The notes under the pieces were generated by a model that searched no databases, was not told the DNA's origin, and was given only the letters and a program-made list of their open reading frames with translations. This document shows, piece after piece, positions 2,761-33,757 of a stretch of DNA of 44,384 nucleotides (within the stretch, counting starts at the first letter, position 1; each line of letters starts with the position of its first letter). Source of the stretch: Rikenellaceae bacterium (GTDB lineage: Bacteria > Bacteroidota > Bacteroidia > Bacteroidales > Rikenellaceae); assembly GCA_044433405.1 (NCBI GenBank), contig JAWXTQ010000001.1, positions 1 to 44,384 on the forward strand, read 5' to 3'. Both the position numbers and the translations under genes were made by a program.

Positions 2761-3558
2761 ATGAATATACATCACAAATTCATTTTGTTGTTAATATCAA
2801 CATTTATTGTCTCTTGCAACAACGAAAATAGCGGTGAATACTCGATATACACGCTACTGACTGAAATTGAAACCACCAATTATGAAAGCAACGAAATTTC
2901 GATTTACGAGCTAAGCTATTGTGGATACAACGAGAATGGGGAAAAAGTTCCTATCGTAATTGGCGAAACAAACGACTACGGAGAGCCTATTTTATCGAAG
3001 ATTAACGCAATAAATGGCTCATTTAGCTCTGTAGAATACACATACATCAATAGCAAAAGCTATCTAGACATATCAATAGTAGGAAACAAGGGCAGCAATA
3101 TTGAGGAGAGCTACAAACTTAGCAGAACATATATGGCTGAATACGAACTTGTTGGTGACGATTATGAGATAATGGCAGATATTAGATATAATGATGGCGG
3201 TTATCGTACTGAGTGGTATGGATACGAACTTAGCCCAAATGATGGGATCTACAATAGTGCTGAATATGGTGAGCTAATTTCAGTAAACTATCACTACTCA
3301 TTAAAATACAACACTTTGCAATTTCAACAAACAGGTATCATAGGTGCTCCATTCTACCAAAATATCACTGGTAATTTTGGCAAACAGAGCCAATATTTAC
3401 TTTCCTATTTTGAGCTAACAGAGAATGGCACTACCACAACATACGCCTTTGAGTATGAGACTGACTATTTTGGCAACATAACTCAAGAGAAGATTACACG
3501 TGACGGAGAAAACTATATTCGAAACATATATAGCTACTCTTCAACATTAGCACAATAA
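2761..3558 (+). CDS. hypothetical lipoprotein
   Basis: 265 aa. N-terminal signal with lipobox ([10 protein letters not shown]). Asn/Tyr/Glu-rich mature part with no recognisable catalytic motif. Confidence 0.8.
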
Positions 3559-3577
3559 TAAAATCAACAATAGAATA

Positions 3578-4624
3578 ATGCAATTTACAGCAGAGATTAT
3601 CGCTTCGTTTTTAGAGGGCGAAGTTGTCGGAGATAAAAACGCAACTGTTACTACAGTGGCTAAAATAGAAGAGGGAACAGCTGACACGCTCTCTTTCTTA
3701 TCGAATCCTAAATATGAGCACTTTATTTATACTACACAATCATCAATAGTGATTGTAAAGAGTGATTTTGCCCCAACTGCACAGATCAGCGCAACTCTTA
3801 TAAAGGTAGAAGATCCATACGCATCATTTGCCAAACTTCTTGAACTATACGCTGCATCTAAACCACAAAAAGAGGGAGTAAGCTACCATTGTGTTGTTGC
3901 TGAAGGGGTAGTATTACCAGACGATATATACATTGGTGAATACGCCTCAATTGGCACAGGGGTGTTGTTGGGTGAGAATGTAAAAATTTACCCTCATGTG
4001 GTTATTGGTGACAAGGTGGTTATTGGTGATAACACAACTATATTTCCGCACGTTACAATATACGAAGAGTGTAAAATTGGCAATAGAACAACAATACATA
4101 GTGGCACGGTGATTGGCTCTGACGGCTTTGGATTTGCTCCTGAGGGCGACAAATACAATAAAATCCCTCAAATAGGCAATGTTATAATCGAAGATGATGT
4201 AGAGATAGGCTCAAACTGTTCAATTGATAGAGCAACTATGGGTTCTACTATTATCAAGAAAGGAACAAAGCTTGACAATCTAATTCAAGTCGCACACAAT
4301 GTAGTTATTGGAGAGAATTGCGTTGCAGCATCTCAAGTGGGCATTGCTGGTTCAACAACTATAGGTCACAACTCAATTTTTGGAGGGCAAGTTGGTATCA
4401 GCGGGCATCTAAAGATTGCTCCACGCACAACAATCTCATCTCAGTCAGGAATATCAAACAGTGTTAAGAACGATGGTTCTATATTGATGGGAACTCCTGC
4501 CTTTGATGCGGGCAAATATCGAAGATCAGCTGCAATATTCAAATCCCTACCTACTCTATCTCAAAAAGTATACGCGTTAGAGAAAGAGCTACAGGAGTTA
4601 AAAGAGCTCCTAAACAGGCAATAA
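3578..4624 (+). CDS. lpxD: UDP-3-O-acylglucosamine N-acyltransferase
   Basis: 348 aa. Long run of left-handed beta-helix hexapeptide repeats ([LIV]-G-x-x-x-x), with the LpxD-type N-terminal domain and C-terminal helix. Confidence 0.9.
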
Positions 4625-4634
4625 TACCCAATAA

Positions 4635-5180
4635 ATGAGAATAGTAGGCATAGACCCTGGCACTAACAAAATGGGGTACGGAGTAATCGAAACCTCTGGT
4701 AATAAGGCAGAGGTTGTAGCGATAGGGTATATAGATTTAACAAAATTTAGCGATCCATACGCCAAATTGGCTCACATATTCAAACGTGTTAGTGGCATCA
4801 TTGAGGAGTATTCACCTGAAGAGATGGCACTAGAAGCTCCATTCTACGACAAGAACGTCCAAAGCATGCTAAAACTAGGGCGCGCACAAGGCGTAGCAAT
4901 GGCAGCTGCACTCAACAAGAACGTAGATGTGTTTGAATATGCTCCACGAAAGATAAAGATCGCAATTACTGGCAATGGAGCAGCCTCAAAAGAGCAAGTA
5001 GCAACTATGCTACAAAAGATTTTAAAGATAAAAGAGATGCCAAAAAACCTAGATGCAAGTGATGGTTTAGCAGTAGCCCTCTGTCACCACTACCGTCGCA
5101 ACAACCCATTAGCAAGTGCCGAAAGCAACTCATGGGCCGACTTTATCTCTAAAAATCCCAATAAAATCATCAAAAGATAG
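4635..5180 (+). CDS. ruvC: crossover junction endodeoxyribonuclease RuvC
   Basis: 181 aa. MRIVGIDPG...GYGVIE start, EAPF and DASDGLAVALCH motifs typical of RuvC. Confidence 0.9.
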   Translation: MRIVGIDPGTNKMGYGVIETSGNKAEVVAIGYIDLTKFSDPYAKLAHIFKRVSGIIEEYSPEEMALEAPFYDKNVQSMLKLGRAQGVAMAAALNKNVDVFEYAPRKIKIAITGNGAASKEQVATMLQKILKIKEMPKNLDASDGLAVALCHHYRRNNPLASAESNSWADFISKNPNKIIKR

Positions 5181-18498: not shown

Positions 18499-20853
18499 TT
18501 ATTTCACATCGTATCGCTTTGCTGACTCATCTATGATGCAGCTATTTTGCAGCTGTGCACTTAGGCGAGCAGCATAATTTTCTATCTGTTCGCGATTGCG
18601 CTCACACATCACCAATTCGCTCTCTATATCACCTCGCGGTGTCTCTTTTAGGCGTTTCTTGCCAATCTCTATAAGCTCTATTGCACGCTCATATCGCTCC
18701 TTGTCATCTCTAATTTTATCTAAGCACGGACTTTCGCTAGGTCTGTCAAACGACACTTGAGCACTCATATTGCGATACCACGCATTTAGCGACCAGAAGT
18801 TGAGCTCTACCAACTCACCTAGCTCTTTTATCTCTTCGTTAGTCAATGGTGAACGCCCAGAAAGCACATTATCAAATGCCGATTCATACACTGGATAGTA
18901 TACCCCATTGATATCCATCCACGTGTATAGTATCTTCTTCTCGCTATCTTTTAACTTAACTCCATGGTGATTAGAGTCGATAATTTGGGTGAGTCGACTC
19001 TTATGTGAACCCCAAGAGTAGGGCTCTTGAAGTGCTGCTGGCCCACCACCAATTAGGGTTACAACCTTTTTAACATATAGATTTACATAGGCAGCATTAA
19101 AAAAAGGATTTTTATCTTTTGCTAAAACCAATTTATCCCTATCATTTTTATCAAAGTCGTGACAACTAACACAACGTTTATCTAGTATTGGTTGCACCTG
19201 CTCCATAAATGAGAAGTTTTGAGGCTCTTTATCCATCCACTCCTCCATTTTACGACTCGGCTGTTTAAGTGCTATTGGCGTTTTAGCTAGAGGTAGAGGC
19301 ACACTGAGCCTATCTTCGTGACAACCGATACATCCATTTACTTCGCCTGGCATTAAGGATACTCCACTTCGCATTGTCTGTATCATCTTCATATCCTCAT
19401 CTAGCAATTGAAAGTAGAGATGTTTGCCAGCAGGAGCTTCAAAACTTGCCGAACCATCCTCCTCTACTGGCACAACGCCCAACACTCTCTTAACCTCAAA
19501 ACTGTGCCAATTGACTCCTGGAGCTTGCTCTCCCTCGCCACCCCAGCCACCAACTGTCCAACTCTTTTTAGCAGGCGACTCTACGACCCTTAAATACTTC
19601 ACACTTCCCCTATCTACCGACTCCATGTGAGTACCTTCGTAGACATTCTGCACATAAAATTGCCCCTGCTCATCTGAATAGTTTCGCATTGATGGAATCT
19701 CAGTTGGCTTAAAACGAGGCTCAATAGGCATAGGGTCAAAGAGACTTAAACTACCCTCAAACAGCAACTCCTCAGTTCCGTCAATTCCGACAAGATAGAT
19801 ACCCATTTTTTGATCTATAATATTCCAACCTCCATCTTTAACCCATATAGATTTTGACACCAAGAAGTAACCATTACCTAGAGGATATGGATCTTCATAA
19901 AAGGCTGTTAACTCCTTAAATGAGTCTAGATTACCATTACCAACCCATGCAGCACTGCTTTTAGGCCAAATATGCACTACTGGTTCTGCTCCATCAACAC
20001 CTTTATTTCTATCAATTATAGCCATCGCACCCCAAGGTCGATCGTGACATGAGCCAAATATACACACCACCTGATCACTATCAGGTATTGCACGCGCATC
20101 AATCACACCACCTGGTGAAGCTGTATTGTTACCATAATATATGGCGTGCTTAGTTCCATCTGGATTAACACTCCATAAACCCTGTGCATCGCCAAAATTT
20201 CGATCAACATACTCCCATCTATCATACAATATACGTCCATCATTTAAAAGCGCAGAATGCCCCTCAAATAGCGTACTTACTCCAATTTGCGAAATGTTTG
20301 CACCATCTCCATCCATACGATAGAGATTGGCCATGATATGACGATTGCACATGCAATATTTGGGCTCTCTAGTAGAGCTAAAGACAATACCCCCATCGGG
20401 CAGATATAGCGGATCAATATCAGAGATTCCCTCTGCAAATGTAAGTTGGTTTAGGTTATCGCCATTAATGTCAATTTCATAAATATGATACCCATCCTTT
20501 AACTCTTTGCGCATCGAGAATATTATTTTCTCACCATCAAACGAAAGCTCTGGATCACGTATCACACCGCTCTGAGTCTCTAGAAGTGTTGTAACACTCC
20601 GCGTATCAACATCAAAGACTCTCAATGCCCCACCAGGAGCAAAGCTGTTTTGATTAATCTCTCCATACTCAAACAGGGTTGCAGTGTTGTGATGATCATT
20701 TGCATACTGCTCTCTTTCAACGAATAAGATTTTCTTACCTTTAAGAACTTCGGCACTTCGCTGCAAAATAATAGACCTAGGAGCTAACTGTCCGTGAGAC
20801 AATGCTGCCGAAAATAGCAAAATCAATGTCAATGTCAAGGTTTTTGGTATCAT
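18499..20853 (-). CDS. secreted TolB/PD40-like beta-propeller protein with two C-terminal CxxCH (heme c) motifs
   Basis: The start is moved to Met22 of the track ORF (MIPKTLTLTLILLFSAALSHGQ signal), because a TATCTTTG -7 box sits inside the longer ORF. Motifs CIGCH and CVSCH lie in the C-terminal third. Confidence 0.8.
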   Translation of the reverse strand: MIPKTLTLTLILLFSAALSHGQLAPRSIILQRSAEVLKGKKILFVEREQYANDHHNTATLFEYGEINQNSFAPGGALRVFDVDTRSVTTLLETQSGVIRDPELSFDGEKIIFSMRKELKDGYHIYEIDINGDNLNQLTFAEGISDIDPLYLPDGGIVFSSTREPKYCMCNRHIMANLYRMDGDGANISQIGVSTLFEGHSALLNDGRILYDRWEYVDRNFGDAQGLWSVNPDGTKHAIYYGNNTASPGGVIDARAIPDSDQVVCIFGSCHDRPWGAMAIIDRNKGVDGAEPVVHIWPKSSAAWVGNGNLDSFKELTAFYEDPYPLGNGYFLVSKSIWVKDGGWNIIDQKMGIYLVGIDGTEELLFEGSLSLFDPMPIEPRFKPTEIPSMRNYSDEQGQFYVQNVYEGTHMESVDRGSVKYLRVVESPAKKSWTVGGWGGEGEQAPGVNWHSFEVKRVLGVVPVEEDGSASFEAPAGKHLYFQLLDEDMKMIQTMRSGVSLMPGEVNGCIGCHEDRLSVPLPLAKTPIALKQPSRKMEEWMDKEPQNFSFMEQVQPILDKRCVSCHDFDKNDRDKLVLAKDKNPFFNAAYVNLYVKKVVTLIGGGPAALQEPYSWGSHKSRLTQIIDSNHHGVKLKDSEKKILYTWMDINGVYYPVYESAFDNVLSGRSPLTNEEIKELGELVELNFWSLNAWYRNMSAQVSFDRPSESPCLDKIRDDKERYERAIELIEIGKKRLKETPRGDIESELVMCERNREQIENYAARLSAQLQNSCIIDESAKRYDVK

Positions 20854-20875
20854 ATCTTCATAATTTTGTTGCTTA

Positions 20876-20905
20876 CAAAGATAGTTTAAAATTTTCAAAA
20901 ACAAA
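20876..20905 (-). promoter_or_regulatory. candidate promoter of the propeller/GH20 operon (-7 TATCTTTG at 20883..20876; TTTG near 20905..20902)
   Basis: TAnnTTTG lies 22 nt upstream of ATG 20853, with a TTTG about 18 nt further upstream. Confidence 0.5.
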
Positions 20906-20956
20906 ACCTTTGACAAAGTATCTAAGAATTAACGCTGCCTAGCAACAAAACTATTT

Positions 20957-28359: not shown

Positions 28360-29760
28360 ATGAAAAATTTATTAACCTGGTATACCACCATTACTCTTCT
28401 AGCTATTGCCATCGTTTTTGCATCATGTGACAAATCACACGACGAAACTATCGATATCGACCAGACCGACTATGCAGATCACACCATTATTATGTATGGT
28501 TGCGGCGGTGGCGATCTTGACGACTTCCTCCTACTAAACCTATGTGAGATTGAATATTTTGGTTATACAGAAAATGTAAATTTTACAGCTTTGGTAAAAT
28601 TCTCAGAGAGCTACCAAGACCAATACCCTGGCACACGACAGATTACTTTGGAGCAGTCAGGATTTACAGATGTTCTCTATAGTGATGTAGCCTTTGAACT
28701 AAACGATCCTAGCAACATTGCCCAGTTCATTTTGGAGGCAAAAGAGAGAATGCCAGCAAAAAAATACACCCTGATCTTATGGAATCACGGCGGTGCTATA
28801 AGTGCATACGATCTCCCTTATAGCACGACAAAAGCTATCTGCTTTGACGACTACTATGAAAATACGGCTATATCTATTTTGGATCTTGAAGATGCTCTTG
28901 AAATAGCAGGAGGTGTTGACCTTGTCTATTTTGATGCCTGCTCGATGAATATGATTGAGAATGTGTATCAACTTAGAGACCAAACAAACTATGTACTTGG
29001 ATCGGCACATGTAACACCAGCATTTGGAGGAAACTATATTGAACTATTAGACGCACTAAACAACAATGAAGATATTGTAGATGCTATTGAAGTGTACATT
29101 CCTAAAGCTTTGAACCTTTGGAAAACTCTATCTGGGGAGAGTGAAGGGTTGGATTTGACACTTATTGATGTAACCTGCCTAGAAGAGCTTGTAGATTATA
29201 TAGCAATATATATTGACATGTTGATTGAACTTAGAGGGTCGTACCTAAACGGCAGTGAACAAGATGAGCTAGAGTTTTATTACTATAATGGCGACTCATC
29301 TGACTATGCTAGAGAATACTTCGAATCACAAGATGAAGATAGTTATCATTATTATTATAGTGAGGGTGGAATATTAAACACCTTCCCATACTCTCGCTAC
29401 AGCGTTGACTTGGCTTACGCGTTTGAACAATTCTCCTACCTTAATGAATATAACGTTGTGTCTACATCAATTATGGTAACATATTTAATGAATAAAGCAA
29501 TAAAAGCACAATCTTATGTTATTGAACCCAGCGCTACTATGTGTAACGTTAGCCTAGGGATCTGCTGGAGTTCTAACGAAGATTACTATACCGAGAAACC
29601 AAATGGAGCTAGACTAGCCGACGTCTACCCTCTTCTCGATTTCGAAAAAGCAACTCAATGGAGCAGATTTATTGAAGGCAACTACATGCGACCTGTCGGA
29701 ATAAGAGAAGAGCTAGATATCGAAACTGGCGAATACTATAATGTATATTACGAGCTATAG
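28360..29760 (+). CDS. clostripain-like (C11 family) cysteine peptidase lipoprotein
   Basis: 466 aa. Lipobox (IVFASC), with a His (LILWNHGGA) and Cys (VYFDACSMNM) dyad context typical of C11. Confidence 0.7.
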   Translation: MKNLLTWYTTITLLAIAIVFASCDKSHDETIDIDQTDYADHTIIMYGCGGGDLDDFLLLNLCEIEYFGYTENVNFTALVKFSESYQDQYPGTRQITLEQSGFTDVLYSDVAFELNDPSNIAQFILEAKERMPAKKYTLILWNHGGAISAYDLPYSTTKAICFDDYYENTAISILDLEDALEIAGGVDLVYFDACSMNMIENVYQLRDQTNYVLGSAHVTPAFGGNYIELLDALNNNEDIVDAIEVYIPKALNLWKTLSGESEGLDLTLIDVTCLEELVDYIAIYIDMLIELRGSYLNGSEQDELEFYYYNGDSSDYAREYFESQDEDSYHYYYSEGGILNTFPYSRYSVDLAYAFEQFSYLNEYNVVSTSIMVTYLMNKAIKAQSYVIEPSATMCNVSLGICWSSNEDYYTEKPNGARLADVYPLLDFEKATQWSRFIEGNYMRPVGIREELDIETGEYYNVYYEL

Positions 29761-29768
29761 TATATTAT

Positions 29769-29804
29769 CGGATTAAGCTTAGTAATTAAACTAAGCTTAA
29801 TCCG
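29769..29804. terminator. perfect 14-bp hairpin between convergent genes (C11 peptidase and the island operon)
   Basis: CGGATTAAGCTTAG / loop TAATTAAA / CTAAGCTTAATCCG. Confidence 0.6.
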
Positions 29805-29948
29805 AAACATTATTTGTTTGCTTGGATGTATTTCATAACGGCATTTGCAACCAACGTGCCGAGGGACATCCCTAAATTAAAATCTAACGTCTCAATATCC
29901 TGCATTGAGCTACTCGCTGAACGCCAAGACAATGGAAGCACAAAAGCG

Positions 29949-30578
29949 TTACATACCAAGTAGCTCGCAGAGTCGATTATATTGCGCCTCGGTGATAGGA
30001 TCTACTTTCAAACCCAGTACTAACCATAGTCCACTTTGGCAGATCTTCTCGATGGGTGAGTGGTTGCCGAGCCAATTGGATGATGGAGGGCAGCTCGATT
30101 TAATAGTGGCTATAATAGCCGTCTCTAACTCCAAACGCTCCTCTTTGGTCTCGACAGGGAATACAACAAAGGTGAAATGACCCTGCATATACTCTGTAAC
30201 CTCCTTCTCTATTAATTCTTGGCGCTGTGCGTCTATCAAAGATCCATATCGCTCTTTGTTTTTTCGAGAGGTCAGGTCGTAGTTCCACTTTGTGAGGTAA
30301 TCATCGTTTTGTCCATTGAGGATTGCACGCCCTATGTTTTTGCGAAATATACTGCGATCCTTATTTTTTGCGAGAAGATGTTGTTTGATTCGCGAACAGA
30401 GTTGATTATTGCCCGTATGCGTTCCGACACGCACAATACGATCAAGTTCCCCAAACTTCTCACCCTCCTCGAAGAAGATGTAGATTCCATTCTTGGGAAT
30501 GTCGTTAGGGTCAAAGGTGTGGTTGTAGCGAGGTAGATTGTTGAAGAGCTTATGTAGCTCAAGTGCATAATCTTTCAT
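29949..30578 (-). CDS. GIY-YIG-superfamily (T5orf172-like) nuclease-domain protein (island gene H)
   Basis: 209 aa. NGIYIFFEE (GIY), IVRVGTHTG (YIG-like), conserved Arg candidates (SRIKQH, FRKNIGR), and Glu in RLELETAIIA. Assigned by motif only. Confidence 0.6.
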   Translation of the reverse strand: MKDYALELHKLFNNLPRYNHTFDPNDIPKNGIYIFFEEGEKFGELDRIVRVGTHTGNNQLCSRIKQHLLAKNKDRSIFRKNIGRAILNGQNDDYLTKWNYDLTSRKNKERYGSLIDAQRQELIEKEVTEYMQGHFTFVVFPVETKEERLELETAIIATIKSSCPPSSNWLGNHSPIEKICQSGLWLVLGLKVDPITEAQYNRLCELLGM

Positions 30579-30582
30579 TGCG

Positions 30583-30993
30583 TTAGTTTTTAGGGGTTAA
30601 AAATGATAGCTGCCTGCCGATAGACATTCGCTCCATCGGCACATCGCAGTGTTTGAGTTTGGCAAAGATAAACTCTCGGTATTTCATACCTGCTAAGACT
30701 GTGAAGTGGTCATTGTCAAGGTCGCACTCCTCACGCAGGTCGTTCAGCACCCCTTGCGCCCAGAGACGACGATCGTTGACCCCTATCTTGTTTAGTGTCT
30801 TGTTGTATGGCGCAATGACCCGATCAAGGGGCAACAGACCATGCTCCGCCGATAGGATAAAAATCCTGTCTAGATTTAACGACTTTGCATACGCCAGAGC
30901 CTTTTTAAATAGAGGGCTGACGTATAGCTCTTCGGCAGGATGTGGTGTGTCGAGTTTCTTGCTTACGCAGAATATTAAGATAATCTTCTTCAT
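30583..30993 (-). CDS. DUF6884-like small alpha/beta protein (island gene G)
   Basis: 136 aa from Met35 of the track ORF (MKKIILIFCVSKKL...). Pattern C.SKK...PA..LY.SPLF ... ILSAEHGLL ... PYNKTL ... RLWA recalls Pfam DUF6884. The longer N-terminus overlaps the zinc-ribbon ORF in another frame. Confidence 0.6.
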   Translation of the reverse strand: MKKIILIFCVSKKLDTPHPAEELYVSPLFKKALAYAKSLNLDRIFILSAEHGLLPLDRVIAPYNKTLNKIGVNDRRLWAQGVLNDLREECDLDNDHFTVLAGMKYREFIFAKLKHCDVPMERMSIGRQLSFLTPKN

Positions 30994-31060
30994 ACTATAA
31001 TTAATATATACTTTGTGACACAGAGCAGGTATCAGCTGTTCTGTGTCTAAATGTTTGGTA

Positions 31061-31288
31061 TTATACGCGTTTCCACTTACCATCTTCCCAGGCATGTTTT
31101 AATACCTTTGCGTTGCAGTGTTTGCATCTGCAAGCTCCAATTAATGGGTCTTTAGCACAACTTTCGCATATTGTTCCACAATTAGAACAGATGTATTTGT
31201 ACCACTTGTCAAATGGGTTAAGTTTTGAAGCCAAAGACTCGCTTACTACGCCACAGTGTGCGCATTCAAAATCTGATTTTGCCAGAAT
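31061..31288 (-). CDS. Cys-rich zinc-ribbon protein, start codon unresolved (island gene F)
   Basis: A 78-codon open frame (31297..31061) missing from the ORF track because it has no ATG/GTG/TTG near its 5' end. It encodes KLKILAKSDFECAHCG...CSNCGTICESC...CRCKHCN...WEDGKWKRV, with four CxxC-type pairs. The 5' end given here is a possible ATT codon. The opposite-strand 62-aa track ORF has no such features. Confidence 0.5.
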   Translation of the reverse strand: MLAKSDFECAHCGVVSESLASKLNPFDKWYKYICSNCGTICESCAKDPLIGACRCKHCNAKVLKHAWEDGKWKRV

Positions 31289-31313
31289 TTTTAGTTTTTA
31301 GTTAAACATTGGT

Positions 31314-31937
31314 TTATAATCCTAATTTTTTCTTGATATCCTCTTGCGGTTGGTTACTGAGTTCGACACTTTTACGATCACCACCTGGTGTATTTACGAC
31401 TATAGGCTTTACAAACTTAAGCAACTGAGTTGCGAACTCTTTATTGTTGAAAATTTCTAAATAGGTAATGAATTGTTCGAGTAGAGAGTTATATTTTGTT
31501 GCCTCTGTGTTATATTTTTCATTATCAGAATAAGAATAAACGGAACTTTCTGTCAAATCGGGCGCATTGGCAAACTCCACCTTTGTGAGAAATTGAAGAG
31601 TCTTTGTTTTACCTTGACTCTCATATATATCTGACAGTTTTGGCATAAATAACTCAGTAAAGATATTGGCGCATTCCTCCTCTTGAGCGAGGCTATACGC
31701 TTGGTCTATACTTCCTGAATTAAGCAAGAAGGCTATTTGAGCACGGTTAATCTTTTCGTATGCACTATCGTTATATTTCATATTTGCAGCACAGGCTCTA
31801 GCCTCTGTAAAATCACCTTTGCCAATAGCTTGTTGCATCTTAGACTCCCATTCTGCGCTATTATCGCAAGAGGAGAGTATAGTAGCACATAAGATAACCT
31901 GCGCAATCATTAAAATGTTTAATAATCTTTTTTTCAT
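31314..31937 (-). CDS. hypothetical lipoprotein (island gene E)
   Basis: 207 aa. Lipobox (ATILSSC). Helical-looking mature part with no recognised family. Confidence 0.75.
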   Translation of the reverse strand: MKKRLLNILMIAQVILCATILSSCDNSAEWESKMQQAIGKGDFTEARACAANMKYNDSAYEKINRAQIAFLLNSGSIDQAYSLAQEEECANIFTELFMPKLSDIYESQGKTKTLQFLTKVEFANAPDLTESSVYSYSDNEKYNTEATKYNSLLEQFITYLEIFNNKEFATQLLKFVKPIVVNTPGGDRKSVELSNQPQEDIKKKLGL

Positions 31938-32037
31938 TTTATTTGTAGGGTATTAATTGTTGAATTTAGAAACTCCCGACCCATCAAATGGATCCCAATC
32001 GCCAAAGTGTACCACCTTGCGAATCCAAGGCAGGCGC

Positions 32038-32610
32038 TCATAGGCAGCATCTTTTTTGTATTTGTTGAGCAATTCTTTGGCTTGACTCGCTAATCATTTG
32101 CAAGATGTTGCTGTCCGAAATAGAGATTGACGAAATAGCGTTTTGAAGTGCCAACTCTGCGCTGTCACCCACACCCATAACCTCTATCGTTGTTGAGCCA
32201 TATGCATCGCCTGTGATGATATTAGCGACATAAAGCGTTACCGAATATTTTAACATCGTTTTGGGCGGCACAGTTGCGGTGACACTCTCCGAAAGGAGGG
32301 CAAAGATTGGAGCTATAACAATAGTTGGCGAGCCTCCCACGCCGCTTATTCCGCCGCGGGATACTACCTGTAATAGCTTGCTTTGAACAAGAGATTGATT
32401 TGCTTGGGTGAAATCAGTTGGCACCATAACAGAAATTTTCACACCTGTCGATAAAGTATTCTGCTCTTGTGTTGTTGTAGGTCGATAATCAACTTTTGTT
32501 TCGCTCTTTTGTGGAGCAAAGGTTATAGGTGCGCTACTGCTATTGCTGCTGGGCGAGCCTCCGCAACCCACCATAGAGGAGAAAAGGAGTGCGTGTAAAA
32601 TCCTCTTCAT
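32038..32610 (-). CDS. hypothetical lipoprotein with a Ser/Thr-rich linker (island gene D); 3' end may be frameshifted
   Basis: 190 aa. Lipobox (SSMVGCGG). Shares a module with gene C (see findings). An alternative frame stays open from 32093 to a stop at 31955..31953. Confidence 0.7.
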   Translation of the reverse strand: MKRILHALLFSSMVGCGGSPSSNSSSAPITFAPQKSETKVDYRPTTTQEQNTLSTGVKISVMVPTDFTQANQSLVQSKLLQVVSRGGISGVGGSPTIVIAPIFALLSESVTATVPPKTMLKYSVTLYVANIITGDAYGSTTIEVMGVGDSAELALQNAISSISISDSNILQMISESSQRIAQQIQKRCCL

Positions 32611-32617
32611 ATTTCAA

Positions 32618-33757
32618 TTATTTGATTACTATATGTGATGTAGCCAATCCCTGTGAGTTATTAACCACTTGAATTTGGAATATGCTATAGAACTCCTTAC
32701 GGAATTTATCAGCAAAGTCGTATGCGTTGAACTGCTGTCCATCCTCTTGTAGGTTCTCGATACGTACATCCACGAAGTGCATCTCGCTAGTGGTATTTCG
32801 TTGCATTGTAGCGGCACCCATCTTTGCGTTTTGACGTACCCAGTTACGAATCCAATCGCCATAGCTATCGCCATCGGTGTTATACATATCTTGGAGGTTG
32901 ATAGCTGCTCCATTTTGTAGTGACACTGTAAATGTAATCTCTCGACCATTAGTTAAGATGTCAGAGAAGTAGCTCTTAATCTGCGTAGAGAGTTGCGAGA
33001 GATTGTTTTTAATCTCTTGGTTGAGTAACACCGATACATTATTAATATTGTTACTCTCGATTGCTACACCAGGGTTATTGATCGAACCGATTGATTTATT
33101 AGAGAAAGCGTCAAGCAATACAATATTATAGCTTAGTTGCGTATTACTCTCCTCGCGTGATACCATCTTTGTTGAAATATCATAATCGAATTCGATGATG
33201 ATGTCAGGACGAGCGGTGGTCAATAAGAGTGTCTTAGCATCTTTAGCCAATCCATCGGCTGCATCGAGTGCACTTTGATTTTCAAGAGACTTTAGGCTTT
33301 GCTCCAAATCAACGAGTGGATAGCCTGAGTCGCTAAAACTACGCTGAATAGTTGTTATTACCTGCTTGTGATAATCACCAGACAACATAAATGCTTGATA
33401 ATCACGAGAATAAAGCGTCTTTCCCATGGACTGAGAGGTCTTGAGAGCACCATTCTTCTGTAACATATTGTCGCTCGGAATCACCATAATCGTCTGCTTA
33501 GTTTGATTTAGTGTGTTTATCATGGCACCATTGCCAATCTCACGAAATGAAACATTGGTCAATGAATGACCTCCATTAAATATCTGATTCTTAAACATAA
33601 TGCCACCTACAATAATGACAACTGCACCTATAAGGTACTTTAACCATCCACCTTTAAGTGAATGATTCGATGAACGAGTTTTGTGTTTAACAATGTCGGT
33701 CGGTTTTGGTATTACCTTGCGAAGCCTACCGACCTTTTTCTTGGGTGTTGTTACCAT
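32618..33757 (-). CDS. single-pass membrane protein with a basic cytoplasmic N-tail and a large periplasmic domain (island gene C)
   Basis: 379 aa. Lys/Arg-rich residues 1-36, TM WLKYLIGAVVIIVGGIMF, then an about 320-aa extracytoplasmic region. A vague LpoB/DUF6175-like impression only. Confidence 0.75.
   Translation of the reverse strand: MVTTPKKKVGRLRKVIPKPTDIVKHKTRSSNHSLKGGWLKYLIGAVVIIVGGIMFKNQIFNGGHSLTNVSFREIGNGAMINTLNQTKQTIMVIPSDNMLQKNGALKTSQSMGKTLYSRDYQAFMLSGDYHKQVITTIQRSFSDSGYPLVDLEQSLKSLENQSALDAADGLAKDAKTLLLTTARPDIIIEFDYDISTKMVSREESNTQLSYNIVLLDAFSNKSIGSINNPGVAIESNNINNVSVLLNQEIKNNLSQLSTQIKSYFSDILTNGREITFTVSLQNGAAINLQDMYNTDGDSYGDWIRNWVRQNAKMGAATMQRNTTSEMHFVDVRIENLQEDGQQFNAYDFADKFRKEFYSIFQIQVVNNSQGLATSHIVIK

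Follow-up and report, generated by a model that had tools for sequence, protein, structure and literature searches.

PDC-M57 is one of 145 phage defence candidates (PDCs) that were derived by guilt-by-embedding, that is, from cassettes nested inside bacteriophage exclusion (BREX), defence island system associated with restriction-modification (DISARM) or restriction-modification (R-M) loci (Payne et al., bioRxiv 10.1101/2024.01.29.577857). In the source preprint, it is listed only in Table S8, as cassette CAS_00183 (FAM_03160>>FAM_00294, count 46) (bioRxiv 10.1101/2024.01.29.577857). According to later papers, most PDCs remain unvalidated, and no paper naming PDC-M57 or the Pfam family PF26468 was found in literature searches. 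In the present work, a window of 44,384 nt (the whole stretch of DNA that was analysed: contig JAWXTQ010000001.1 of a Rikenellaceae bacterium, positions 1 to 44,384) was studied, in which two adjacent genes on the minus strand, G and H, were found to match PDC-M57. G encodes a DUF6884 protein, and H encodes a predicted nuclease of the GIY-YIG type.

Pfam curators relate DUF6884 to the DNA-binding protein YaaA and have described its CxxxK and LSAxxG motifs together with a base-flipping model; in their confident model, the family member YfjM flips a nucleotide into the motif pocket (PMC11701544). YaaA co-purifies with double-stranded DNA and has been linked to peroxide stress, mutation rate and the DNA-damage response, and YfjM was enriched on abasic and ribonucleotide baits. 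DpdC, a DUF6884 enzyme, converts 7-cyano-7-deazaguanine (preQ0) to 7-amido-7-deazaguanine (ADG) within DNA, independently of DpdA/B. A first-pass annotation of the window, made from the sequence without database searches, had described DUF6884 as a family with no assigned function. Some hints of function do exist for it, namely the relationship to YaaA and the membership of DpdC.

Comparison of the G-H pair with PDC-M57

The pair in the window showed the arrangement of PDC-M57, with A-then-B order, the same strand and adjacent genes. G and H are 4 nt apart, as had already been read correctly in the first-pass annotation. Both PADLOC profiles were matched nearly end to end; G matched PDLC04712 (PDC-M57A) with an expectation value (E) of 6.2e-55, and H matched PDLC04713 (PDC-M57B) with E=4.8e-88. 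No structural difference from PDC-M57 was seen, and the pair, which is not embedded in an R-M, BREX or DISARM locus, is another instance of it. Thus, the novelty implied by the first-pass annotation did not hold: the pair is a catalogued candidate, and the family of H is already present in Pfam as GIY_YIG_3. It is very probable that the two proteins make up one functional unit of a DUF6884 reader and a GIY-YIG nuclease, that this unit is a member of PDC-M57, and that a third minus-strand gene of the region, F, does not belong to it.

Co-occurrence of G and H across genomes

The first-pass annotation had suggested that G and H are coupled and had named a survey of gene neighbourhoods as a check. 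Such a survey was carried out with one genome per species (185,579 species). It yielded 387 candidate stretches encoding a relative, and the best 80 loci were retrieved; more than 3,500 homologues of H were present in a large protein database. Full-length G was located directly upstream of H on the same strand in 61 of the 80 loci, and in 9 others G and H shared one reading frame, which gives 70 loci with adjacent or fused genes. In the rest, G was 406 nt away from H (one locus), a longer divergent DUF6884/YaaA-like gene preceded H (three loci), the genes were degraded or truncated (two loci), or G was not found (four loci, one of which had too little upstream sequence). The fusions (e.g., P0028 and P0094) preserved the G-then-H order, and the pairwise identities of G and of H were correlated (r=0.70). 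Functional coupling of G and H far beyond chance was therefore strongly confirmed; in inheritance and transfer, the two genes behave as one unit, and in some loci they have been fused. In the archaeal locus with the 406-nt gap (L066:6753-7980), a gene for the Holliday-junction resolvase Hjc was located just upstream of G.

The most distant G-type proteins that were found were each followed by a GIY-YIG gene: in L085 by a GIY_YIG_2 gene (Pfam E=7e-26), in L089 by a divergent GIY_YIG_3 gene recognised by PADLOC's second M57B model, and in L090 by a gene for a canonical GIY..YIG..R protein. Therefore, G-type proteins have partners from at least three GIY-YIG lineages. All-against-all clustering of 1,019 neighbouring open reading frames (ORFs) revealed no other family in more than 5 of the 80 loci, which indicates that there is no third component.

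In L085 (positions 3497-5019), and likewise in L086 and L087, the PDC-M57A-like DUF6884 gene and the GIY_YIG_2 gene overlapped by 4 nt, and the nuclease was outside PADLOC coverage. A conserved 164-aa gene of no assigned function preceded the pair in these three loci.

The AlphaFold2 (AF2) model of the natural fusion P0094 had a predicted local distance difference test score (pLDDT) of 96.1 and a predicted template modelling score (pTM) of 0.87, and a single helix (residues 125-151) passed from the G domain into the H domain. This rigid one-body model with a bridging helix argues that G and H, where they are encoded separately, form a fixed heterodimer. Like the three GIY-YIG lineages that partner G-type proteins, it supports functional coupling of the two. 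Of the first-pass suggestions, a nucleic-acid-targeting effector with a partner sensor is the most reasonable reading.

The other option offered in the first-pass annotation, a toxin-antitoxin system in which H would be a toxic nuclease and G a labile antitoxin, fared differently. Since the fusions give one polypeptide with a continuous bridging helix and a predicted rigid body, they cannot be reconciled with a toxin that is set free when its antitoxin is degraded. Two small co-directional genes separated by 4 nt, with the putative neutraliser upstream, and a nuclease with no other visible immunity gene would suit such a system. Nevertheless, G has an enzyme-like conserved pocket and a DNA-binding fold instead of an antitoxin-type fold, solo H genes exist (L022, L049, L062 and haloarchaeal plasmids), and no toxin-antitoxin family was matched in Pfam, NCBIfam or PADLOC. 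A toxin-antitoxin role is considered very improbable.

Gene G encodes a DUF6884 protein with an intact motif pocket

The identification of G as a DUF6884 protein, which had been based on a motif pattern, was borne out by a profile search: G matched Pfam DUF6884 (PF21818) with E=1.2e-43 and 148.9 bits (cutoff 30) over profile positions 1-134 of 135, and all of the motifs named were present (LYVSPLF, ILSAEHGL and PYNKTL besides the family motifs). Both family motifs were intact, CxxxK as C9-V-S-K-K13 and LSAxxG as L47-S-A-E-H-G52. Among 27 homologues, the columns C9, Y24, S26, F29, L47-S48-A49, Y63, T66, L67, W78, G102 and Y105 were invariant, and K13 was at least 90% conserved. The fold was assessed on the fusion P0094, with whose N-terminal domain G aligns; the top Protein Data Bank (PDB) match of the G-like domain was E. 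coli YaaA (5caj, E=1.8e-3, prob 1.00). According to this model, G is predicted to adopt the DNA-binding fold of YaaA, and its CxxxK/LSAxxG pocket is intact.

G was listed as an ORF of 170 aa starting at position 31095, which overlaps F. The start of G is the ATG at position 30993 (MKKIILIF), the 35th codon of this long ORF, because all homologues and both the DUF6884 and PADLOC profiles begin at M35 (the PDC-M57A match covers residues 35-168 of the long ORF, that is, residues 1-134 from M35). The 170-aa form was rejected as an over-extension relative to the homologues and profiles, and G thus has 136 aa. A public gene call (P0121, 166 aa) likewise begins G upstream of its true start and so runs into the 3' part of F (window positions 30994-31095). 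This over-extended call is an annotation artefact, and the contigs that carry it have no annotated F gene.

Among the described relatives of G, E. coli YaaA (DUF328, 5caj) and B. subtilis YfjM (DUF6884) have an alpha/beta fold of the "cantaloupe" type, in which a basic cleft binds DNA, and G is predicted to have this fold too. However, these two proteins stand alone, are tied to oxidative stress or DNA damage and are not coupled to a nuclease, whereas G is. DpdC, a component of the Dpd 7-deazaguanine system, belongs to the same Pfam family as G and acts on a base within duplex DNA. Weak DpdC profile matches across the motif region were found among G-family proteins, consistent with a common N-terminal region containing CxxxK and LSAxxG. 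In contrast to the 136-aa G, which is paired with a nuclease only, DpdC is a modifying enzyme of approximately 310 aa encoded in an 11-gene system together with DpdA/B and que genes, and no deazaguanine genes were linked to G.

The relationship to DpdC bears on the possibility that G and H form an R-M-like pair, in which G would mark host DNA by modification and H would cut unmarked DNA. The one biochemically characterised DUF6884 member, DpdC, does alter a base in DNA chemically, the putative catalytic Cys and Lys are kept in G, and the gene order and tight coupling resemble those of methyltransferase-restriction operons. However, DpdC acts only on preQ0 already placed by DpdA/B, and no dpdA/B, que or cofactor-supplying gene accompanied G-H. 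Moreover, a 136-aa protein without a recognisable cofactor-binding domain is unlikely to be a de novo modifier, and the 9 fusions among the 80 loci, together with the rigid model, fit a reader and effector better than two enzymes competing for sites. An R-M-like pair is therefore quite improbable.

Gene H encodes a GIY_YIG_3 protein

H contained GIYIFFE at residues 31-37 and RVGTH at residues 50-54, with 16 residues between Y33 and R50, as the first-pass annotation had noted in assigning H to the GIY-YIG type. The precomputed domain PF26468 was found on the window's own protein (P0001) and on all 120 listed homologues. The name of this family is GIY_YIG_3; thus, the family of H has already been filed under GIY-YIG by Pfam curators. 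In our own Pfam and NCBIfam scans, H had no match above threshold; the Pfam set that was scanned did not include PF26468. The most frequent sub-threshold Pfam matches of 26 H-family members were DUF123 (21), GIY-YIG (11) and GIY_YIG_2 (6), with a best E of 6.5e-4; these three families all belong to the GIY-YIG clan. The more specific label T5orf172 that had been attached to H was not upheld: T5orf172 (PF10544) had no match in H or in any of the 26 family members at E<=5.

In the AF2 model of H (pLDDT 91.2), the order of elements was strand-strand-helix-helix...strand-helix, in agreement with the beta-beta-alpha-alpha-beta-alpha order of the three-stranded GIY-YIG fold. The first strand (31-42) begins with G31-I32-Y33, which are invariant among the 26 homologues, the second (45-52) contains VRVG, and these are followed by a helix with R63 and H67 (60-68), a second helix (77-89), inserted helices, a third strand (135-141) and a helix with R148 and E152 (145-162). 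The family had 46 invariant columns, including Y33, R50, R63, H67, R148 and E152, and these six residues were kept in the divergent partner of L089. Candidate catalytic residues are Y33, R50 in the place of the YIG Tyr, R63, H67 and E152; E152 was assigned as the metal-binding Glu by position only.

H resembles canonical GIY-YIG proteins (I-TevI, the N-terminal domain of UvrC, and R.Eco29kI) in the Tyr of the GIY hairpin and may also match them in the Arg and His four residues apart on the next helix (R63/H67 versus R27/H31 of I-TevI) and in the Glu on the helix after the third strand. It differs from them in additional helices (approximately 45 residues) that separate helix 2 from strand 3, in a conserved C-terminal extension (WLG...SGLW) and in the replacement of the YIG Tyr by Arg (VRVG). 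To judge from the alignment, this Arg is a family-wide variant and not a defect of the copy in the window. Taken together, the motifs, the Pfam family and the sub-threshold matches make the assignment of H to GIY-YIG-type nucleases well supported, though not proven.

Distribution and mobility of the cassette

The loci were spread over both prokaryotic domains. Thirty-four of the 80 were archaeal (Woesearchaeota, Nanoarchaeota, Pacearchaeota, Methanosarcinales, Thermoplasmatota and others), and 46 were bacterial, from more than 10 phyla including lineages of the candidate phyla radiation (CPR). The mean identity of H between Archaea and Bacteria (0.61) was equal to that within Bacteria (0.61), and only a Flavobacteriaceae clade showed family-level coherence in H (0.89). 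H was absent from 50,697 phage genomes, was found in 9 of 2.9 million viral contigs and occurred as divergent solo copies on 7 haloarchaeal megaplasmids; these copies matched the second PDC-M57B model (E=4e-64) and had no DUF6884 gene upstream. On the one plasmid examined (L100, Haloarcula sp. CBA1115 plasmid NZ_CP010532.1, 113614-114366), solo H was flanked by an ArdC-like gene on one side and a gene for an HNH endonuclease on the other.

The closest related cassette, L081, came from the same study and had a different genomic context. Window positions 31002-30126 were aligned by blastn with L081 positions 3373-4249 at 78.7% identity, and nothing upstream aligned. Since this homology starts 9 nt before the ATG of G, the transferable unit is essentially the two ORFs. 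The GC content was 0.44-0.48 in G-H versus approximately 0.36-0.39 in the flanks and was about 40% in the window.

A very compact cassette that has spread promiscuously across domains of life could be a selfish, free-standing homing element, in which H would cut cassette-free genomes, G would recognise the DNA, and repair would copy the cassette in. GIY-YIG is the classic domain of homing nucleases, and many of the weak structural neighbours of H were phage intron or homing endonucleases. However, the flanking genes differed in essentially every locus, so that there was no conserved target gene, and no intron or intein context was seen. Free-standing GIY-YIG homing genes concentrate in phages, in contrast to the near absence of H from phage genomes and viral contigs described above, and in the window no flanking repeats were present beyond one probably fortuitous AT-rich 16-mer. 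Homing is accordingly a very improbable explanation.

The immediate neighbours of the pair were heterogeneous and included a few type I R-M and methylation-associated defence system (MADS) genes and a few repair-type genes. The latter are relevant to another explanation, a DNA-repair module in which G would recognise a host lesion (an abasic site, a ribonucleotide or an oxidised base) and H would incise the DNA. Such a module would be a compact, mobile counterpart of UvrC/Cho-type or Endo V-type incision that could be useful in small genomes, and many of the hosts are DPANN archaea or CPR bacteria with reduced genomes. The GIY-YIG domain performs the repair incision of UvrC, the lesion baits of YfjM and the links of YaaA to peroxide stress, mutation rate and DNA damage point in the same direction, the neighbours included pyrimidine-dimer glycosylase (twice), NUDIX (twice), UvrD and Hjc genes, and the context in the window is that of chromosomal housekeeping genes. 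On the other hand, no repair gene was consistently linked to the pair in the 80 loci, and the distribution (387 stretches in 185,579 species genomes, with inter-domain identity equal to intra-domain identity) is extremely patchy and typical of mobile accessory genes, not of repair cores. In addition, a syntenic relative lacked the cassette and had a different candidate defence nuclease at the site, and PDC-M57 was first found embedded in R-M, BREX and DISARM loci. A role in repair is therefore rather unlikely, but it is the chief alternative to defence.

Proposed working mode of G and H

The reading preferred here is that the two genes of the G-H operon together make one enzyme, an instance of PDC-M57 working as a reader-licensed nuclease in defence; the chances for and against this reading are about evenly balanced. 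G and H would form a stable heterodimer in which the C-terminal helix of G runs on into the N-terminal helix of H, as in the natural fusions. G would read a nucleotide flipped into its pocket; a comparable movement must occur in DpdC if this enzyme is to gain access to preQ0 within DNA. Once G has recognised a base that does not normally occur in the host, the GIY-YIG domain tethered to it would be placed, or licensed, for nicking or cutting in the vicinity. The most plausible trigger would be a hypermodified base of the phage type, and otherwise a lesion or a ribonucleotide; a modified base as the specific trigger is nevertheless a doubtful proposition. Self DNA would be spared since it lacks the ligand, and no methyltransferase would therefore be needed; Type IV (modification-dependent) restriction enzymes follow the same logic.

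The biological role would most likely be defence against invading DNA, and a function against phages or other mobile genetic elements is given a probability slightly below even. Several points have a defensive character: the source cassettes of PDC-M57 lie in BREX, DISARM and R-M loci, type I R-M and MADS genes adjoin some of the pairs, the spread is patchy and crosses the two domains without a drop in identity, and a PDC-S26-like PD-(D/E)XK gene is present at the same site in a relative. The 9-nt border of the homology with L081 and the higher GC content of G-H than of its flanks belong to the same group of points.

The Type IV enzymes, such as the PvuRts1I/MspJI type with an SRA domain and the GIY-YIG enzyme PD-T4-3 (9u75), which is specific for 5-hydroxymethylcytosine (5hmC), combine a base-flipping reader with a nuclease, as is proposed for G-H. 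They also have in common with the pair a single polypeptide or two tight subunits, a sporadic horizontal distribution and the lack of a cognate methyltransferase. The first-pass annotation had stated that no methyltransferase is adjacent and that the genes are not a classic R-M pair; in fact, none was detected anywhere in the window by Pfam, NCBIfam and PADLOC profile scans and by gene content, and none recurred beside the pair in the 80 loci. The difference lies in the reader, which is DUF6884/YaaA-like in the proposed unit as opposed to SRA, YTH, DUF3427 or similar domains in Type IV enzymes. This comparison concerns a possible working mode and not membership.

A number of observations weigh against the reading of G-H as a reader-licensed defence nuclease. 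Of the seven systems that the source preprint validated, none was PDC-M57, and no domain description of it was given (bioRxiv 10.1101/2024.01.29.577857). The pair in the window is situated amid housekeeping and lipoprotein genes with no further defence gene nearby, and its immediate neighbours elsewhere are mostly unremarkable. The relatives of G, YaaA and YfjM, are connected with DNA damage and not with immunity. For H, the second Tyr of YIG is an invariant Arg (V49-R50-V51-G52), and the fold assignment depends on the Pfam naming, the motifs and consistent sub-threshold matches. Foldseek gave no significant GIY-YIG match (best E=2.2 in the PDB and 0.26 in BFVD): the top two PDB neighbours, R.Eco29kI and PD-T4-3, had E=2.2-2.4 and a template modelling score (TM) of about 0.25, and many weak BFVD neighbours were GIY-YIG endonucleases. 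The H-family profile had zero matches at E<=10 among all PDB sequences, and no solved GIY-YIG structure was significantly similar to H in sequence or fold. Alignment of the H family with the I-TevI catalytic domain by hhalign was not significant (probability 0.2%); the only aligned segment, of negligible probability, placed VRVG on VYVG, R63 on R27 and H67 on H31 of I-TevI, whose sequence was checked against 1mk0 and 1ln0 (R27 and E75 are the residues mutated there). Finally, two residues are deleted in the H protein of the window, and the first Cys of the family CxxC is missing from it.

Alignment of the H family with the GIY_YIG_2 partner from L085 by hhalign was also not significant; the sensitivity of hhalign was limited because the diversity of the H alignment was low (Neff 2.2). 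The deletion with the lost Cys was located at approximately 30090-30110 (residues ~158-165), just before the conserved WLG...SGLW region; the CxxC is otherwise near-invariant.

As a candidate, the pair is compact, clean and highly amenable to testing, and the logic of a reader and a nuclease would, if confirmed, be new for the DUF6884 fold. If G-H is a reader-licensed nuclease, this would provide a mechanism for one of PADLOC's 145 candidate systems and a molecular role for DUF6884, and it would provide an example of how two-domain enzymes of very small size, immune or repair, pass between Archaea and Bacteria. A nuclease with specificity for a modified or damaged base would also be of practical use, since Type IV enzymes serve for the mapping of epigenetic bases. 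A speculative and unlikely extension is that the DUF6884 "cantaloupe" fold is an unrecognised class of base-flipping readers of non-canonical DNA bases, which together with GIY-YIG makes a new compact restriction enzyme without a methyltransferase that is freely exchanged among DPANN archaea, CPR bacteria, methanogens and Bacteroidota. With DpdC as a relative, its target might be hypermodified phage DNA, of the 7-deazaguanine type or another. If true, this would be the first DUF6884 function outside Dpd and a new reader fold for modification-dependent nucleases, with a possible use in modified-base mapping.

Gene F and the organisation of the locus

Three ORFs, F, G and H, were present on the minus strand of the region, and the first-pass annotation had treated them as a trio. 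The features of the locus are listed in Table 1.

Table 1. Features of the G-H locus and its borders in the window.
Feature	Position	Strand	Description
Gene H	29949-30578	minus	209 aa, GIY_YIG_3 (PF26468), PADLOC PDC-M57B; proposed nuclease subunit
G stop/H ATG spacer	30579-30582	minus	4 nt; operon junction indicated
Gene G	30583-30993	minus	136 aa, DUF6884, PADLOC PDC-M57A; proposed reader/sensor subunit
Cassette 5' edge	30994-31002	minus	blastn homology with L081 starts 9 nt before G ATG
Hairpin	29768-29805		Perfect 16-bp stem and 6-nt loop; between the convergent C11 peptidase gene and H
Inverted repeat	31010-31054	minus	Imperfect, 19 nt, 79% complementary; between F stop and G start
Gene F	31064-31291	minus	Small zinc-ribbon-like protein with four CxxC; outside the G-H module, last in the upstream DUF6175 lipoprotein operon

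F was listed as a 57-aa ORF initiated by TTG (31061-31234). The open frame is longer, comprising 76 codons (31291-31064) without an ATG, and the extension adds a further CxxC (CAHC). The upper limit of 31309 that had been given to the region was incorrect, since the in-frame ATG at this position is followed by two in-frame stops (TAA 31300-31298 and TAA 31294-31292). An exhaustive search with the 76-codon frame yielded ten homologues at E<=1e-3. The eight that were aligned had 68-74 aa, spanned query residues 3-75 and all started with Met, seven of them with MAK.D (mostly MAKSDF). The invariant Cys residues of the family are C10, C35, C38, C42, C56 and C59 (window numbering). As judged from these alignments, F is a genuine conserved zinc-ribbon-like microprotein, and the alignment of its family covers all of the extended frame.

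In the window, the Met codon of the F family is CTG (31285-31283), preceded by ATT. The same CTG was found in two independently assembled contigs of the same organism (L083 and L084) and is therefore not a sequencing error. Thus, either translation of F begins at a non-canonical codon, or F is a pseudogene of recent origin whose 76 codons are otherwise intact.

The description of F as a small multi-CxxC zinc ribbon was therefore apt, but its association with G and H was not supported. No homologue of F was found in the 80 other G-H loci, and an unrelated 84-aa gene was located upstream of the closest relative of G (79% identical). In a related genome, the F homologue P0214 (85% identical) ended the same string of genes (DUF6175, a further gene, a gene for a protein of ~210 aa, and F); the nucleotide identity of this operon to that of the window was 71-75%, and the synteny with L101-L104 stopped at the stop codon of F. 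Accordingly, F belongs to the upstream DUF6175 operon, and the module is the pair. F as a DNA-binding partner or regulator of G-H was rejected on the grounds of synteny and co-occurrence.

The next gene after F of P0214 was a 403-aa PD-(D/E)XK_4 gene that matched PADLOC PDC-S26, and no G-H was present there (L101:3294-4505, compared with 29949-31062 in the window). From this comparison, the slot downstream of F looks like a small variable site for nuclease or defence-type genes. Three points of the locus are of use for annotation: the publicly mis-called start of G, the separate F with its non-ATG start, and this variable slot. The operon upstream of F (31314-33757, minus strand) encodes DUF6175 (379 aa) and two proteins with lipoprotein-like N-termini and no family (190 and 207 aa). 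In the relative L101, the counterpart of the 190-aa gene is longer (371 aa), and the gene of the window matches just one portion of it.

The hairpin listed in Table 1 is flanked by the stops of the C11 peptidase gene (29760) and of H (29949) and is probably a bidirectional terminator that closes the G-H operon. The inverted repeat between F and G is outside the region common to the window and L081; it may terminate the upstream operon or serve in regulation. A scan for sigma-70 promoters gave results no better than shuffled sequence; this consensus may not apply to an apparently Bacteroidota-type genome.

Marks of an integration site (flanking repeats, tRNAs and Rfam RNAs) were sought around the pair, and only an AT-rich direct repeat was found (29733-29748 and 30992-31007, 14 of 16 positions identical). 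It brackets G-H, with one copy within the C11 peptidase gene, near its 3' end, and a second at the start of G, and is probably due to chance. The nearest tRNAs are more than 12 kb from G-H. No recognisable mobile-element gene and no second match to a defence system were detected in the window by the same Pfam, NCBIfam and PADLOC scans.

The window as a whole is ordinary chromosomal sequence and contains cysS, lpxD, ruvC and pnp, genes for methylmalonyl-CoA mutase, a MATE pump and the C11 peptidase, the DUF6175 lipoprotein cluster and a trp operon. An 805-aa ORF at 18499-20916 (minus strand), in an ordinary Bacteroidota-like context, carried the middle domain of the hydrazine synthase alpha subunit (HZS_alpha, E=2e-36).

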